Shown: in pieces, positions 23,282 through 64,000 of the stretch
How positions within the stretch are numbered: the stretch's first letter is position 1
How the letters are laid out: each line of letters starts with the position of its first letter
Origin: Squalus acanthias
Taxonomy: Eukaryota
DNA length: 64,000 bases
Assembly (NCBI GenBank): GCA_030390025.1
Contig: CM059432.1
Location: forward strand, 61,010,001 to 61,074,000
Direction of reading: 5' to 3'
Notes under the pieces: generated by a model
Databases searched by the model: none
What the model was told of the DNA's origin: nothing
Seen by the model: the letters and a program-made list of their open reading frames with translations, nothing else
Made by a program: the position numbers and the translations under genes

Positions 23282-25330
23282 ATGGAGTTCTCCAGGAACT
23301 AAACCCTTAGGGGGAAAAATTGGGTCGCTAGCTACTTTTAGCACCCCGAAAAAATTAGCGCGCCCGAAATTCACCAGTAGCGCCCCAAGAGAGAGGCCCC
23401 GCCACCCTCTTGGGGCGCTGCGAGCCAATATCGCGGCGCAACGTGCCGCAACGCCACGCTCTGCGGCACTTCGCGCCGTGGTACTGCAGGCCTTCCTCCC
23501 CTTATTAAAGGGGAGGGGCCTAGCGCAGCGCGACCCGGGGCCCAGCTGGGCCACCAGGGATCGGAGTGCCGGCAAAAGAGCCCAGCACTCGAGAAGTGCC
23601 GGGCTCACGGAGCGCAGCTGGCACCCTGCGGGGGGGGCTGCAGAGAAGGCCGGGGATGGCAGAGGGGGCAGGTGCTGGCAGGCATCTAGCAACGAAAATG
23701 GCCACTCGGCACCTCCCCTTTAATTAGCACCGCCCTGGCTGCAGGTAGGCCCCCCTGACCCTGTTGGACATAGCGTCCAGCGGTAAGTCAGGGAGCACTA
23801 CCGAAGATCGCAGCCGGGGTGCTGCGCACAGCGATGATGTCATCACCGGCGGCGCAGCACCACGGGGCGCTAATGGTTACCGCTGCCGCAAACCTCCTGC
23901 TGAATTTTGCGGGAGGCGTTGGCAGCGCCGTGCCCAGGCGCCAGTTGCTTTGCGCCCTTAGGGCGCTAACGGGAACGCAAATCAACCAAATTTTTAGGCC
24001 TTAATTTTATGGATAGCAAAGTAGAAGTGATGGTCCATGAAGTGGAAGCAAGGATGATTGCCCTCTTTGGCATATCAACCCACCCTTCACTGAGGTCAGC
24101 ATAGCAGCATATATTGGAGGAAGATGCAGAAGAAGATGGAAGGTCTTAAGAAAGCTGCCAATGTAAGGCTACCTAATAGCACCAAATAGCAGGTTGATGG
24201 ACCAAGATACATGCCACAAATTGCTGCCTGCTCCAAACAAAACACTCACACAAGCATACAGCTCTTTCACTGTTTACTATGTAAGGCCATGATTAACAGG
24301 AAGGCTGCTCGTCACTGTAGTCTTCCATGGAATGTGTGCCAACTCCCAGCGCATCACCAATGGAAACTGCAGTGGTAGAGGTCCTAGGACAAGGCAGTGG
24401 ATCTCTTGTGAATGCTTAGACAGATACGAGAATGTGCTGCAATAGTCTTCTTGGCTGGAGTGATGTTTCTACAGTGATGTTTCTGCATTCTGCTCTGACC
24501 TTGTGGGGTGAATACCTTCTCATGGTTAGACCTCTTTGTATTGCAAAATTGTGCAGCTTACAGCACAACCATGGTGTTCTTAGAGACTATAGCTGGGTAC
24601 TCTGTGAGGAGAACCTTGATCTGTTGAACTATCTGAAGCACTTCTTCAAGATCCCAATGATATGGTCTATAATGATTCTAGTAGCTTTGTAGGTCTTGTT
24701 GTACATGCACTCTATTTCTGTATGTGGCTGGAGCATTAACCCTTGATGAAGAGGGTAGCCTTGGTCTCCCAGATGCAACACTTGCAAGCTGCCTTTGCCC
24801 TCCATTAAGAATGGCACAGATGATTGTCTTAGAATGAAAGCATTGTGACTGCTTGGGAAGTGGACATAATCTGGTGTTCCTAACCAGCTGAACATTGATG
24901 AAGTGGTATCCCTTTTGGTTCATGCAGATGATGGGATTGTATCTGGTGTTCATTGGCCACATGGATGCTATCAGACATTGGAGAATTCGGCAATGTGATA
25001 AAATTGTGTCAGTGAGAAAGGCACTTTAAGTGCTGACCTTGCTGAACAATGCATTAATCACTAGCACATCTGTAGGCAGCAAATTGGTTGATATTGCATA
25101 TGTTCCCTATGCTAGCCTGGAAGGAGACACAATCATAACAGTTGAGCAAGGAGGTGACTTCAATTGCCACTAGCAGTGCTGTGCCTCTGATGCTGGTTGT
25201 CTGCAGATGTCTTTGCATCAGATAGCTCAGCTCCATAACTGTCTCCCTGCTGACTTACAGAGGCAGCTCCCTTGGCCATTATTAGGTAGGTATGCCAAAA
25301 GCTGCAGATGTGGTTTACGGCATAATTGTG
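23282..25330 (-). mobile_element. PIF/Harbinger relic: transposase pseudogene on minus (~24500-25300), Myb/SANT start on plus (23282-23309 + 24001-24170)
   Basis: Transposase fragments NVQL, HNAFILRQSSVP, LGDQGYPL and IGILKKCFR are on the minus strand. FMDSKVEVMVHEVEAR..LFG is on the plus strand. Confidence 0.7.
23310..24000. mobile_element. GC-rich Harbinger-type MITE
   Basis: TIR-like ends gggggaaaaattggg / ccaaatttttaggcc, TSD TTA, repeated TAGCGCC motifs, and an inverted relative at 49357-50006. Confidence 0.8.
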
Positions 25331-49356: not shown

Positions 49357-50006
49357 GGGGGCTAAATTCGGTTGATTTGCGCCTCTTAGGGCGCTAACGG
49401 GGCGCAAATCAACTAGCGCCTGGGCGCGGCACCGCTAACGCCTCCCGTGAAATTCAGCGGGAGGTTAGCGGCGGCGCTAACCATTAGCGCCGTGCGGCCC
49501 GTCATCGCCGTGCGCAGCACCCTGGCTGTAATATTGGGTGGCGCCCCCCGACTTACCGCCGGACGCTATGCCCGCCGGGGATCAGGGGGCCGAGGCAGCG
49601 CTACTTAAAGGGGAGGTGGCGAGCCACCATTTTTGTTGCTGGCTGCCTGCCAGCACCTGCCCCTGTTGCTGTCCCCGGCCCCCATGAAGCCCTCCCACGG
49701 GGTGCCGGCTGCTCTCCGTGAGTCCGGCACTCCTCTTGAGTGCCGGGCTCGTTTGCCGGCACTCCCGATCCCTGGTGGCCCAGCTGGGCGCTGGGACGCG
49801 TTGCGACAGGCCCCTCCCCTTTAATAAGGGGAGGAAGGCCTGCAGTACCGCGGCGCGACGTGCCGCAGTGCCACGATATTGGCTCGCAGCGCCCCAAGAG
49901 GGACGCGGGGCGTTTCCGGTAGTGCCCCATCTCCCTCTCGGGGCGCTACCTGGGAAAATCGGCCACGGGGCGCTAACTAAAGGGGGCGCTACCCAATTTT
50001 TACCCC
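49357..50006. mobile_element. GC-rich Harbinger-type MITE, inverted relative of 23310-24000
   Basis: TIR-like ends gggggctaaatt / aatttttacccc and collinear reverse-complement similarity. The TSD is imperfect. Confidence 0.75.
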
Positions 50007-57739: not shown

Positions 57740-58510
57740 TGACCCCTACTGCTGATGACCCAGTGCTTTGTGATGGACAACTCTCCCAATTTTGGCACCA
57801 GTCCCCAGATTTTAGTGAGGACGTGGCTGGGTCGACTGGGTTGGGGGTGCCTTTGTCGTGTCCTGAGATGCATTACCAAATGGTTCTCACAACCAAGCAT
57901 CAGGTTCTCTTCTGCAGTCTGTGGGTGGGACCTCCATGATGATGCCTCTTTGCAGGGCAAGATTGTGCAGCATCCAGAAGATTACCACGATCCTTAAAAC
58001 CTTAGCTAGGCTGTATTGCAGGATTTCCCGAGATCTATCCAGGCCCCTGAAGAGTTGTTTCAACATGCTAATAGTATGCATGATGATTACTCTGGTGGAA
58101 GCATTAACTTCATTATACCCATGTTCAGTTGGTGTCCTTAGATACTAGAGATTTTATGAGCCACTGCTGCAGACTTACTACCCTGACATTTGTCTTTTTG
58201 TGTCAAAAGTGATGGGATGATGGATTGCTTCAAAATGAAGACATCATAACAGCTGCCTGGGAAATGAGCACTGACATGTATAATGTGGTGCTGATTGTTG
58301 CAACTGAGAGTAGAATCCTTTCCTATTCATGTAGATATTTGAATATGTGAGGAGGCATAAAGCGCCACAGGAATGCAATCCATAACCCCGTGGACACTGG
58401 AGAATCTTGCCACTCTATAAACCTACACAGCTCTCTTATGCTACTGTTGGTTGTCAAATCGGGAAGGAGATGAAATTAATTGCTTGAGCAAACAAGGCAT
58501 CAGTCACTTT
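57740..58510 (-). mobile_element. PIF/Harbinger transposase relic
   Basis: TISMLKQLFRGLDRS..LQYS..IVVIFWMLHNLA and an upstream HFPGSCYDVFILKQS. Confidence 0.7.
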
Positions 58511-58836: not shown

Positions 58837-59729
58837 GGAGGAAAAATTCAGTTGGTTGCGCCTCCCGTTAGCGCCTTAAGAGGGTGCTAATGGGGCGCAA
58901 AGCAGCTAGCGCCCGGGCGCGGCGAAGTTTGCGCCGCTCGCGAAATTAACTAGACATTTTGCGGCGGCGCTAAACACTACCGCCACGATCTCCTGCACCG
59001 GCAGATCATGACGTCACTCGAGTGCGCAACGCCCCGGTATCGCCCCGGAGCGGATATTGAGTGGCATCCCCTGCCTTACCGCCTGACGCTAGCAACGACA
59101 GGTTGAGGGGAGCGTTCTGCAGTCATGAAGGGAAAGGGGGAGCGCTATTTAAAGGTGACCGCTTCCTGCCTTTTATTGTTGGTGCCATTTTTGAACTACG
59201 CATTCTGAGAGAGAGAGGTAGAGACTTCTGGAGAGATTCAACGTTGTGTGAAGGAGTTTTGGGTACTGAGCAGCACTTTGCAGGTTCATTTTGATTTGCC
59301 ATTCCTTGTATCGATTTAGCAGAGACTGTGGGGGCTGCACTCTGAGCTCTTGGCCTGGTACTCTCCATTGTTCTTTCCAGCAGATTTGATGTGCAGGTCT
59401 CTCCAGGCCGAGATTCAAGGCTGCAATGAGCAGGATGTGGATGGAAAGCAAGATTAACCATCCCCTTTAAGAACTGGCCCGTGCCATTGTGTGTGTGTTC
59501 CATTGCTGACTGACATTACATGAGCTTCGCCAGCGCTCTGAGGTAGCGCCTTGCTCCTCGGCCTTTGCGCCTTAAGACAGGTGTGAAGCGCCTGATTTAG
59601 CACTGCAATCACCTCCAGGGGCGATAAAAGTGAAGTTTGCAGTCGGTGGCGATAATTAGCGCCAGGCGCTAATCTTTGCGCCCGGCCGATATTTGCGCCC
59701 CAAATGGGGCGCGACTGAATTTTTCCCCC
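58837..59729. mobile_element. Young Harbinger-type MITE, copy A (893 bp)
   Basis: TIRs ggaggaaaaattcagt / actgaatttttccccc and TSD AAT (58834-36, 59730-32). Confidence 0.88.
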
Positions 59730-59814
59730 AATGTGTCTGATTTGAAGAAATATGCCATGAAGCACAATTGTCTTATACCAGTGTATATGAATGAGCATCA
59801 CTAATACATTAGCT

Positions 59815-60945
59815 TGTGGCGGATCACCACCTAAACGGGCATAATCCACTCTTCCGTCCGTGGACAATATATCGAGCACCTTCCCTTTAAGGCACCTTGG
59901 GGGAAAAATTCAGTCGTGCCCCGTTTGGGGCGCAAATATCGGCCGGGCGCAAAGATTAGCGCCTGGCGCTAATTATCGCCACCGACTGCAAACTTCACTT
60001 TTATCGCCCCTGGAGGTGATTGCAGCGCTAAATCAGGCACTTCACACCTGTCTTAAGGCGCAAAGGCCGAGGAGCGAGGCGCTACCTCAGAGCGCTGGCG
60101 AAGCTCATGTAATGTCAGTCAGCAATGGAACACACACACAATGGCACGGGCCAGTTCTTAAAGGGGATGGTTAATCTTGCTTTCCATCCACATCCTGCTC
60201 ATTGCAGCCTTGAATCTCGGCCTGGAGAGACCTGCACATCAAATCTGCTGGAAAGAACAATGGAGAGTACCAGGCCAAGAGCTCAGAGTGCAGCCCCCAC
60301 AGTCTCTGCTAAATCGATACAAGGAATGGCAAATCAAAATGAACCTGCAAAGTGCTGCTCAGTACCCAAAACTCCTTCACACAACGTTGAATCTCTCCAG
60401 AAGTCTCTACCTCTCTCTCTCAGAATGCGTAGTTCAAAAATGGCACCAACAATAAAAGGCAGGAAGCGGTCACCTTTAAATAGCGCTCCCCCTTTCCCTT
60501 CATGACTGCAGAACGCTCCCCTCAACCTGTCGTTGCTAGCGTCAGGCGGTAAGGCAGGGGGCGCCACTCAATATCCGCTCCGGGGCGATCGTTGCGCACT
60601 CGAGTGACGTCATGATCTGCCGGCGCAGGAGATCGTGGCGGTAGTGTTTAGCGCCGCCGCAAAATGTCTAGTTAATTTCGCGAGTGGCGCAAACTTCGCC
60701 GCGCCCGGGCGCTAGCTGCTTTGCGCCCCATTAGCGCCCTCTTAAGGCGCTAACGGGAGGCGCAACCAACTGAATTTTTCTCCCCCTTACCTTTAAGGCA
60801 GGAGTGGGCGGGGCCTCAGGGTTTTTCCAGAGAATTCTGGGAGCTTGCTGTTCAGCCATTTTGTACCATGCAGTGGTATTAAAAAAGTCTCTTGTTTTCC
60901 GCACATGGATTCAGCCTTAATTTGTGTTTCGCGGTAGCCTCAACA
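59815..60945 (+). mobile_element. 5' LTR of Gypsy element 1 (~240 bp once the MITE is removed)
   Basis: TGTGG start and CAACA end directly before the primer-binding site, with ATTAAA at ~60878. The 3' boundary is firm and the 5' boundary is inferred. Confidence 0.7.
59899..60785. mobile_element. Young Harbinger-type MITE, copy B (887 bp), inverted to copy A and inserted in an LTR
   Basis: Near-identical reverse complement of copy A, with TSD CTT (59896-98, 60786-88). Confidence 0.88.
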
Positions 60946-60946
60946 T

Positions 60947-60960
60947 TGGTGACCCCGACG
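60947..60960 (+). promoter_or_regulatory. tRNA-Trp primer-binding site
   Basis: TGGTGACCCCGACG is complementary to the 3' end of eukaryotic tRNA-Trp (..CGUCGGGGUCACCA). Confidence 0.85.
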
Positions 60961-60985
60961 CTCAGAACGTATTCCGAGCACTGCA

Positions 60986-62408
60986 ATGGCGGACACGAAC
61001 GCAGTTTCCGTGAAACTGGCAGAGTTTTTGGAAAACCAGCCCGAAGCCTGGTTTCTCCAAGCTGAATCTCGCTTCCGGCTGCGAAACATCACCACAGACA
61101 GGACGCAGTACGACTACCTCGTCACATCACTGGGTAGCGCCACAGTTTCGAAGGTTTGGACAGCGCTGCAGAACCCACCAGAGGAAGGCAAGTACGCACA
61201 TCTCAAGACAGCGCTCCTTAAAAAATTTACGGCCTCGGCATATCAGCGAAACTGCCACCTCCTCGACCTTCCAGGCCTCGGTGATGCCTCACCGTCAGAC
61301 CTCCTCTCCCACATGCTCTCCCTCACCGACGAGAGCCCACCCGGATCCCTCTTCCGCACGCTGTTCATCCGCCAGCTCCCTCTCAGCATCCGCCCAGCGA
61401 TCGTGGCGTCCGGCCTCACGAACCTGGAAGCCCTGGCCGATGAGGCCGACAAGCTGCTGTCCGCTCACTCCAGCCGCGACGTCACTCCGGACCTGGCAGC
61501 CAATGCCTGGGCGCGTCCCTCACCGGCCACCACGCGGCCACAAGGGCCTGCCACCAGGCCAACGGGGCCTTCACGCCCCACTAACCCGGGCCACTGTTAC
61601 TACCACGCACGGTTCGGCGCCAGGGCACAACGGTGCAGACCTCCCTGCTCTTTCAAGTCCGCCCCCGTACCAGCCCCCGCGATGGCTGTGGGCCACGCGG
61701 GCTCCCTGTTGCTTGTCACGGATGACAAAACCGGCCGCCGGTTCCAGTGCGACACTGGGGCTCAGCACAGCATCATCCCGGCCTCCTCCCTCAACATTCA
61801 AAAGGGCGAACGAGGACCGGCGCTGGCTGCTGCTAACGGCTCGGAAATCCGGACGTATGACACCCGGACAGTCACCCTCGACCTCGCTGGTCGCTGCTAC
61901 CGATGGGAGTTCATCACTGCCAAGGTGCTCTCCCCTCTCATCGGCGCAGATTTCCTGTGCGCCCATGGCCTACTGGTAGACATCCCCCGTCACCGCCTCG
62001 TGGACATGAACACCATGTCCCCCATCCTGGGCGCCATGGCCCCCCGTCAACCCGCCGACATGGCGTCACAGTGCCACGCCCGGGCCACGGATGACTACTC
62101 GGCACTCCTGGCCGAATTCCCGGCCCTTACCAATCCGACCTTCTTCGCGGAGGCCGCCAAACACGGGGTGGAACACTTCATCCCCACCACAGGCCCCCCA
62201 GTGTACGCCCACGCCCGCAGGCTGGACCCGACCAAACTGGAGATCGCGCGGACCGAGTTTGCCACCATGGAACAGCTCGGCATCATCCGCCGCTCCAACA
62301 GTCCCTGGGCCTCCCCACTCCACATCGCCCCCAAACCAGGCGGAGGTTGGCGCCCCTGCGGGGATTACCACCGCCTCAACGACGCCACCACCCCTGGTCG
62401 GTACCCCG
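60986..62408 (+). pseudogene. Gypsy (CsRn1-like) gag-protease-RT polyprotein, interrupted in RT by a second LTR element
   Basis: Gag VKLAEF..PEAWFLQAE, CHCC motif CYYH..FG..A.RC.PPC, protease CDTGA and RT SPWASPLH..WRPCGDYHRLN. The frame breaks at RYPV, where a new LTR begins. Confidence 0.9.
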
Positions 62409-62602
62409 TGTGGTAACACAATACAGCTTCCTGTGACTCGAACTTTATTGCATCACTTCCTGTGATTAGTCCAGGATAAATACTGGACTGAGCAGTTGGA
62501 TCCTGGAGAGGCATAGAGTAAGACCTCTTTTGTATGTAGCACCTTTTTAGTTGATTAAAGCTTACTTTAAGTTCACCACGCGTAAGGCTCATTCTTACGA
62601 CA
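62409..62602 (+). mobile_element. 5' LTR (194 bp) of Gypsy element 2
   Basis: Termini TGTGGTAA / TTACGACA are a 7/8 inverted match. It begins exactly at the break in element 1, with ATTAAA at 62554-59. Confidence 0.8.
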
Positions 62603-62680
62603 ATTTAATCAACTTTGAAAAACTTCGCACTCAAACTTTTTGGACGAACTCGGAACTAAGGACCCAGGGAATCACCCATC

Positions 62681-64000
62681 ATGGAAAACATCCTTAAACC
62701 ATCGCGTCTTGACTTGGACCCAAACACCCCAGCAGCCGGTAAGGTGTGGAAACACTGGTATCGCACGTTTGACAATTTTCTCGAATATTGCAAGGCTGAT
62801 GATGACACAAAGTTGCGGATACTCATCAACTGTGTCACTCCGAATGTATTTCAGTATGTTGAGGAATGGGGCAGTTACGAGGAGGCAATTCGGACGCTTA
62901 AAAGACTATATACTAAGACACCGAATGAGGTCTATGCCAGACATCTACTAGCTACAGCCCAACAAGGGCCGGAGGAATCCATTGATAAATTCCTCCAAGA
63001 GCTTCGCAGACTTAGTATGGACTGTAACTTTCAGGCGGCCTCAGCTGAGCTGTACCGTGAAGAAATGATCCGTGATGCTTTCATCTGCGGGCTTGCCTCC
63101 CCATTTATACGCCAGCGTCTACTGGAAAGTAAGACACTTGAGCGTCAGAGAGCTTATGACATGGCTTGCTCTCTAGATCTGGCAAAAAGAAATGCAGACC
63201 TTTATACAGTGCCCAGACCTCGGTCTGCTGCCTTAACTACAGTCAGGCAATTTAAGAGGCCACAGGTGAACTCTATTAGGGAGGACTTTATTCCTGATGA
63301 TCAATCTGATGACTTCACTGATGAAGAGGATGATGACCCCACTGTGGCAGCCTCTTGGCAATCTAAGAAATGCTTCTTTTGTGGTGATGAGTTTCACCCT
63401 CGGAAATTCTGCCCTGCTCGCAATACGTTTTGCAGTCATTGCAACAAAAAGGGTCATTTTGCAAAGGTTTGCCTATCAAGAGCCTCTACGAGGGCTTATC
63501 AAGCTAAGTCCTACCGAACTGCCCCGGTAAGGGCCTATCAAGATGTTCCGGCTAAAATCTATCGTGCTTCCTCTCGGGTTTTCTCTCGAAGAAACACACC
63601 TAGAGTTTCAGCCACTCTTTGTGCAACGACACCAATTACAGCTGCTTGTCCTCAGAACCTATTCCATGCAGCTACAAAAGCATCAATTAATGGACATACT
63701 TTAGATGCCTTAATTGACTCAGGTAGCACTGATAGTTTCATTAGGGAACAGATTGTTGCAGAGTTAAAGCTACATGTTTTCCCATCGGACCAGGCAATTG
63801 CGATGGCTCAGTCATCACTTAATACCAGAATTTCTGGCTTTTGTATGGTTGAAATAACACTTAATGGTCACAGGTATCCCTCCACCCGGCTTTCGGTGCT
63901 CAAGGACTTATGTAGTGATCTTATCTTAGGGCTGGATTTTCAAAAGCAGCATAAGAAGCTCACCATTGAGTTCGGCGGATCCAAACCTGAACTCACTATT
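62681..64000 (+). CDS. Gypsy element 2 gag-protease polyprotein (Mag-like, two CCHC knuckles), open to the window edge
   Basis: Hand translation gives 440 stop-free codons, absent from the ORF track because there is no stop: MENILKPSRLDLDP..WKHW..IRDAFICGL..IRQRLLE..CFFCGDEFHPRKFC..CSHCNKKGHFAKVC..LIDSGSTDSFI..ILGLDF. Confidence 0.9.
   Translation, partial: MENILKPSRLDLDPNTPAAGKVWKHWYRTFDNFLEYCKADDDTKLRILINCVTPNVFQYVEEWGSYEEAIRTLKRLYTKTPNEVYARHLLATAQQGPEESIDKFLQELRRLSMDCNFQAASAELYREEMIRDAFICGLASPFIRQRLLESKTLERQRAYDMACSLDLAKRNADLYTVPRPRSAALTTVRQFKRPQVNSIREDFIPDDQSDDFTDEEDDDPTVAASWQSKKCFFCGDEFHPRKFCPARNTFCSHCNKKGHFAKVCLSRASTRAYQAKSYRTAPVRAYQDVPAKIYRASSRVFSRRNTPRVSATLCATTPITAACPQNLFHAATKASINGHTLDALIDSGSTDSFIREQIVAELKLHVFPSDQAIAMAQSSLNTRISGFCMVEITLNGHRYPSTRLSVLKDLCSDLILGLDFQKQHKKLTIEFGGSKPELTI

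Follow-up and report, generated by a model that had tools for sequence, protein, structure and literature searches.

To our knowledge, self-primed reverse transcription has been shown experimentally only in the chromoviruses of fission yeasts, and it has been predicted for their kin and for one plant Copia lineage. Some animal Gypsy families are labelled self-primed in Repbase Reports. Minus-strand synthesis has to start no more than one or two bases from the end of the LTR. A different use of base pairing is known from retroviruses, where it may occlude the 5' poly(A) signal by hiding the hexamer, as in the polyA hairpin of HIV-1.

Tf1 pairs its first 11 bases with the primer site, and RNase H cuts between bases 11 and 12 (PMC7175516). 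A chromodomain and a three-duplex 'pretzel' have been defined as features of the Tf1/sushi group (PMC10085805). A sequence criterion for self-primers, namely a complement of at least 10 bp in the 5' LTR, starting 0-5 nt after the LTR, has been given together with predicted plant self-primers of the Tcn1 (Gypsy) and TAR (Copia: Houba, Osr-1) lineages (PMC6317226). Under this criterion the Gypsy element described here is a predicted self-primer, with a complement that comprises 11 bp and starts 1 nt past its LTR.

The element and its boundaries

The window, by which we mean the whole 64,000-nt stretch of Squalus acanthias DNA that was analysed, ends within an LTR retrotransposon. Its 194-bp 5' LTR (TG...CA) occupies positions 62409..62602 (+). 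The ends were fixed from assembled contigs of other copies, which cannot show RNA starts. In three contig runs out of four (X2, X4, X6), the loose end that precedes 62409 is a polypurine tract, and in contigs of X2 and X9 the interrupted older element resumes behind 62410. On the right side, contigs end at 62602 in X9 (records 29 and 30), and in X4 a diverged copy departs from the window at the same position (record 11). The 3' LTRs of two-LTR relatives confirmed an LTR end at the CA before A-T-T-T, in agreement with the CA at 62601-02 proposed in the first-pass annotation. A longer LTR, to which contig ends at 62604 might point, was rejected, because these ends arise from two LTR variants that merge after 62574. 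No second LTR copy was found within the 64-kb window. Positions 62404..62408 (+) are probably the left copy of a 5-bp target-site duplication, the right copy of which would lie beyond the window; duplications of 5 bp were read by eye at five of six two-LTR relatives.

The LTR is followed by the Gag-protease part of a single Gag-Pol ORF (62681..64000, +), which is open for 440 codons up to the window end. The two CCHC knuckles previously noticed in Gag were both found, at 63371-63412 and 63431-63472 (+), with an aspartyl protease at about 63677-63940 (+). Searches of the ESM Atlas matched generic Gag clusters only, and no relatives of the element were present among the viral contigs scanned. 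Most words of the element were found in 20 runs among those listed, under seven organism codes. Over 62409-62790, the window copy has only two listed differences from the main subfamily (62492, 62663). Given these and the 440 open codons, the element is young. The TG...CA LTR, the polypurine tract, the short target duplication and the domain order of the relatives (PR-RT-RH-IN) assign it to the Ty3/Gypsy LTR retrotransposons by sequence features; the domain order was read from 12 relatives, as the element's own RT is located beyond the window end.

The insertion interrupts the RT of an older Gypsy element on the same strand (60947..62408, beginning at about 60800 at its widest; ORF from 60986), which encodes a DUF7041 Gag with a C-H-C-C knuckle. 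We take this older element to be CsRn1-like. It provided an internal control, with an ordinary TGG primer site at 60947-60960, presumably tRNA-Trp-like, whose best self-complement within 400 nt is 8 of 11. A 1.94-kb stretch that is its own inverted repeat at 94% identity (58841-60780) stops directly in front of the older element. It probably represents a fold-back DNA transposon, and its ends are similar to 23736-23995 and 49388-49491 (68-76%). A short ORF is located at 57887-58144 (-), and its translation, to judge by its motif, resembles the C-terminal part of a Harbinger-type transposase. No tRNA was found within the 64-kb window.

A putative primer site complementary to the element's own LTR

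No TGG primer site follows the LTR of the element. Positions 62604..62614 (+) were instead found to be the exact reverse complement of 11 nt inside the LTR, at 62549..62559 (+), and both observations bear out the first-pass annotation. We refer to the LTR segment as the arm, the proposed first 11 nt of the RNA if transcription starts as in Tf1, and to its complement as the putative primer-binding site, a designation supported by sequence, fold and clade-wide pairing. The primer site is separated from the LTR end by a single A (62603), which is unpaired with the base after the arm. The ATTAAA described as lying under the duplex is indeed inside the arm, where it forms the 3' half (62554..62559, +) and resembles a poly(A) signal. 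A second exact reverse complement, 62581-86 versus 62594-99, forms a U5 stem of six Watson-Crick pairs and one G-U (62581..62599, +).

In the predicted fold of the element, the pair probability was 0.7-1.0 for ten of the 11 pairs and 0.43 for the innermost pair. The 11-bp duplex dominated the fold at every start tried (62411-62549). The 77-nt segment 62549-62625 folds with -15.4 kcal/mol (z -2.84), and two of 200 shuffles were equally good. Taken on its own, the 11-mer of the window outdid every one of 40 shuffled versions of the 203-nt stretch preceding Gag.

Pairing and covariation among relatives

The covariation analysis proposed in the first-pass annotation was performed with a set of 57 loci, comprising the window and 56 of 60 loci fetched (four with less than 107 nt before Gag were dropped). 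In a search without any anchor, 44 of the 57 loci had a perfect inverted repeat of at least 10 nt within the 203 nt preceding Gag; the longest such repeat averaged 6.3-7.4 nt in shuffles and measured no more than 9 in Gag controls. With a cut-off of 8, an initial anchored score let every one of the 57 loci pass; it was considered too permissive and dropped. The rule finally applied required an 11-mer after CA and 1 nt, with at least 10 of its 11 positions paired. It was passed by 46 of 57 loci, in the same register and with different 11-mers, compared to none of 108 control windows. A TGG directly after the CA of the LTR, the mark of tRNA-primed Gypsy elements, was found in none of the 57 loci.

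At the level of Gag families, 19 of 25 passed the anchored rule (median identity among passing families 47%), and these 19 families have 19 different 11-mers. Mean pairing with the own LTR was 10.84 of 11, compared to 7.16 across families; over positions 5-11 the corresponding values were 6.89 and 3.52 of 7, and none of 342 cross-family pairs was perfect. Six families failed: two had 9 of 11 at the same anchor (L024, L052), two are apparently decayed (L036, L050) and two have no visible LTR (L051, L060). Two of these 46 passes should be treated with caution: in L054 the anchor is incorrect, the true duplex being preceded by TA, and L037 is ambiguous.

With L037 and L054 excluded, 23 distinct primer-site types were scored. 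Watson-Crick pairs occupied 251 of 253 duplex cells, and G-U pairs none. When G-U was counted as a full pair, 12 G-U cells appeared in 53 loci; four chance alignments accounted for 11 of these, and homologous duplexes for one. The duplex stops on its inner side, with position 0 paired in one of the 23 types and unpaired in 22. On the other side, the excess of own over cross-family pairing persists to about position 16 and fades by 17-18. The arms are 11-16 nt long; they are located 24-68 nt upstream of the primer site in the same LTR and are oriented with the 3' end next to the LTR end. By its position in these alignments, the duplex ends where the 3' end of a primer belongs.

A variant LTR subfamily of the window's own family has 10 substitutions in 62498-62602, none of them in the arm or the two stems; the chance of substitution-free elements is 0.019 for the arm plus two stems and 0.31 for the arm alone. 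This variant also carries an additional A in front of the arm, which makes the duplex one pair longer. Judged from the aligned loci, the self-priming signature is real and clade-wide, and the self-priming suggested from the window alone is now well supported by covariation in a fixed register throughout the clade.

Relatives and phylogenetic position

A search with the Gag-protease sequence returned 264 proteins, between 771 and 2200 aa in length. Most of the 120 best matches are single Gag-Pol ORFs with roughly 1150-1330 aa. No chromodomain or SH3_Tf2-1 hit is listed for these 120, and the named relatives among them come from shrimp, woodlouse, corals, sea anemone and a tunicate. An RT search added ray, hagfish, cockroach and nematode, at 57-68% identity. 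Two-LTR relatives measure 4.0-4.5 kb. All 12 full-length relatives scanned have the order PR-RT-RH-IN and lack a Chromo or SH3_Tf2-1 domain. Their integrase follows RNase H, and the Gmr1 order (integrase before RT) was not seen in any of the 12. The RT motif of the relatives is often YLDN. The element and its relatives form a clade of compact, single-ORF Gypsy elements of about 4-4.5 kb that is widespread in animals. Six loci (L055-L060) are animal retrotransposons from contigs that had been assigned to bacterial genome bins, which represents host contamination of these bins; L060 additionally carries a Gmr1-type element, with integrase before RT.

A quick RT-RH tree of 47 rows, from which three rows had been dropped for short coverage, recovered the clade with support of 100. 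All 13 chromodomain-bearing rows formed a separate group (support 99). In topology tests on 31 of the 47 rows (LG+G4), a grouping of the clade with two fungal chromoviruses was rejected (p-AU 0.003), and a position as sister to the whole chromovirus group was not (p-AU 0.19). The RT tree called for in the first-pass annotation thus supports the clade and separates it from the chromodomain-bearing rows, with Tf1 and sushi not among the rows. By the features tested, the clade appears to be non-chromoviral: it falls outside the chromodomain-bearing elements in the RT tree and has no chromodomain itself. An independent origin of its self-priming is likely, and is put no higher than that because Tf1 and sushi are not in the tree.

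Anatomy of the arm and side structures

The arm consensus reads, 5' to 3', (A/T)-G-Y-Y-n-n-n-T-A-A-A. A canonical AATAAA or ATTAAA is present inside the arm in 13 of 19 families, and few canonical hexamers were found elsewhere nearby. In L001 and L055 only 23 nt of LTR are left after an AATAAA-ending arm, which makes for a minimal R plus U5; any poly(A) element further downstream would need to be located beyond the LTR.

The window contains an initiator-like TTAGTT (62547..62552, +) with its putative +1 at 62549. For a pattern resembling the TCAKTY initiator, as named in PMC3601003, the best of 91 registers placed +1 at arm position 11, with 12 of 23 types matching at least 5 of 6 positions; the match is loose and the LTR is T-rich. 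A TATA box at -30 was rejected, as TATA sequences upstream of the arm (5 of 23 types) were no more frequent than in control windows. The TATA-like GATAAATA at 62476-83 is too far upstream for a start at 62549; it extends across the centre of a U3 inverted repeat (62463-62494; 15-nt arms, 80%).

Splice-acceptor-like sites upstream of the arm were found in 9 of 23 types versus 5.3 expected (p about 0.055). With this borderline enrichment, a splice acceptor was not adopted as a clade feature. A pyrimidine tract plus AG of this kind is located within 70 nt before the arm in L002, L017, L021, L034, L053, L057 and the window. We may speculate that an acceptor in the 3' LTR could serve a spliced gag-only RNA, a source of excess Gag in a single-ORF element.

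A predicted hairpin opens straight after the arm, at the putative cut site (62560..62572 in the window, +), and is the side stem conserved in the clade. It was detected in 15 of 23 types versus 5.3 expected, and with the first 5 nt held fixed in 14 of 23 versus 2.8 expected, the window scoring via a different pairing. The window's own hairpin is weaker, with five pairs including one G-U and one G-C, and G-U pairs make up nine of 70 across the types. The 6-bp U5 stem pointed out in the first-pass annotation is real in the window; as a clade feature it was rejected, being present in 5 of 23 primer-site types versus 6.2 expected. The pretzel of Tf1 was likewise rejected, since its side duplexes scored 5.39 versus 5.28 across families and 5.28 in shuffled sequences, and 4.52 versus 4.35 and 4.23, respectively.

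Proposed mechanism and alternative explanations

We consider it quite probable, from the sequence comparisons and the parallel with Tf1, that these elements use Tf1-like self-priming in a separate lineage, with the duplex probably also hiding the 5' poly(A) signal. The arm is the proposed primer because it is the only complement in sight of the site where minus-strand synthesis must begin. By analogy with Tf1, transcription would start at or just before the arm (about 62549), and the arm, at the 5' end of the RNA, would fold back onto 62604-14. The RNase H of the element would cut after the arm, at 62559|62560, the junction with the conserved hairpin, and RT would extend the freed 3'-OH across 62603 and U5-R. 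Plus-strand synthesis would then copy the primer back into the primer site, as in retroviruses, whose plus strand carries a primer site copied from the primer itself (PMC7472051). Exact complementarity without wobble would follow, because copy-back carries mutations of the arm into the primer site. The same duplex would probably bury the hexamer at the 5' LTR and leave it free at the 3' LTR; masking of the 5' signal is probable because the last six bases of the arm are a poly(A)-signal-like hexamer.

Other explanations of the duplex were considered. The single 11-mer of the window gives a modest signal (z -2.84), which a chance inverted repeat in an A+T-rich LTR could produce, but the recurrence of the pairing in one register, absent from all control windows and built from differing sequences, refutes chance, whose probability we regard as negligible. 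It is highly improbable that a host tRNA half or another small RNA primes at 62604, the LTR arm being a secondary look-alike. Priming by tRNA halves does exist in other LTR elements (PMC6317226, PMC10886601). A host RNA would, however, hold the site constant, and the 23 types have 23 different primer-site 11-mers, each tracking its own LTR; furthermore, Rfam gave no match over 62350-62750, which is a weak test for 11 nt. The duplex might also act only as a mask of the poly(A) signal in the 5' LTR, with priming by something else. The arm ends in T-A-A-A in most types and mostly contains a canonical hexamer where few others are near, and the duplex can form solely at the 5' LTR. Yet a structural helix should tolerate G-U, as the adjoining hairpin does (9/70, compared to 0/253 in the duplex), so that a G-U-free duplex is not what a merely structural helix predicts, and such a helix need not start one base past the LTR end. 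In addition, six of 19 families have no canonical hexamer in the arm, and since none of the 57 loci has a TGG site, no alternative primer is apparent. Poly(A) occlusion, which the first-pass annotation had offered as an additional or alternative role, is therefore plausible as a second function; as the only one it is quite unlikely, leaving both the missing tRNA site and the absence of G-U unexplained.

A further variant keeps self-priming and replaces the capped 5' end with another primer: one cut from a longer leader, the 3' R copy of the arm, or a second RNA molecule. Poly(A) addition after the hexamer would put the arm at both RNA ends, and perfect runs from the anchor extend over 10-17 nt in 17 of 19 families, so that the start of the primer is not fixed. 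The remote TATA-like GATAAATA and the borderline excess of acceptor-like sites also fit an RNA with a longer leader. Set against these observations, the initiator-like register peaks at arm position 11, own-specific pairing stops at about position 16, as expected if the RNA begins there, and loops of 24-68 nt suit fold-back in cis. We regard a primer other than the 5' end as unlikely.

The preferred reading, self-priming by the 5' arm, can be extended to a wider model, which we advance tentatively and with some doubt. In this model, tRNA-free priming would have arisen independently in a large animal Gypsy clade, in a form unlike that of Tf1, with the first 11-16 nt of the RNA combining initiator, poly(A) signal and primer. 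The duplex would block premature 3'-end formation and set up priming, and the hairpin would replace the pretzel and position the RNase H cut. Copy-back would free the primer sequence in each family, allowing escape from silencing by tRNA fragments.

Comparison with known systems

The masking proposed here resembles that of the HIV-1 polyA hairpin, in that the hexamer would be hidden at the 5' LTR only. In the clade, by contrast, a tRNA site is lacking, and the masking partner would be the primer site itself, located beyond the LTR. Among animal elements, Cigr-1 of Ciona intestinalis, also known from molluscs, combines short LTRs and a Mag-like Gag with one ORF of some 1210 codons. The clade described here, some members of which come from a tunicate, is compatible with Cigr-1 in size and architecture, and Cigr-1 or one of the MolGy clades is a lead only for its name. 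Cigr-1 and 16 MolGy clades are listed in PMC6238403, the main text of which contains no match to PBS or primer and the supplement of which gives Cigr names only. The main text of PMC2774666 has no match to Cigr, PBS or self-prim. The Saci2 clade is tRNA-primed, and no mention of self-priming was found in its paper. We found no description of self-priming in this clade in the literature searched, which was that outside subscription journals and Repbase Reports. The signature is probably a version of a known mechanism in a lineage for which that literature holds no such description.

If the proposed reading is correct, it implies more than one origin, or more than one survival, of self-priming, here built on another RNA scaffold. 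It would also provide dozens of natural primer variants for studying RNase H cutting of an RNA-RNA duplex, and it predicts elements beyond the reach of host tRNA fragments. Such elements would be annotated as having no PBS because they are self-primed.

The closest parallels are the predicted plant self-primers and the Tf1/sushi group. The clade shares the sequence criterion with the plant Tcn1 and TAR lineages, which extend predicted self-priming beyond fungi and beyond a single lineage; of these, Tcn1 belongs to the chromoviruses and TAR to Copia, whereas the clade consists of animal non-chromovirus Gypsy elements. With Tf1 and Tf2 of Schizosaccharomyces pombe, Tj1 of S. japonicus and the Tf1/sushi group it has in common a post-LTR site that complements a segment of the LTR, with an 11-nt core (PMC4600332). 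The clade differs from Tf1/sushi in the lack of a chromodomain and SH3_Tf2-1 (12 of 12 full-length relatives), in a separate RT-RH branch (in a tree whose rows do not include Tf1 and sushi themselves), in two CCHC knuckles and in an RT motif that is often YLDN. Compared to Tf1, it lacks the three-duplex pretzel and has a hairpin directly after the putative primer, which ends in a poly(A)-signal-like TAAA.
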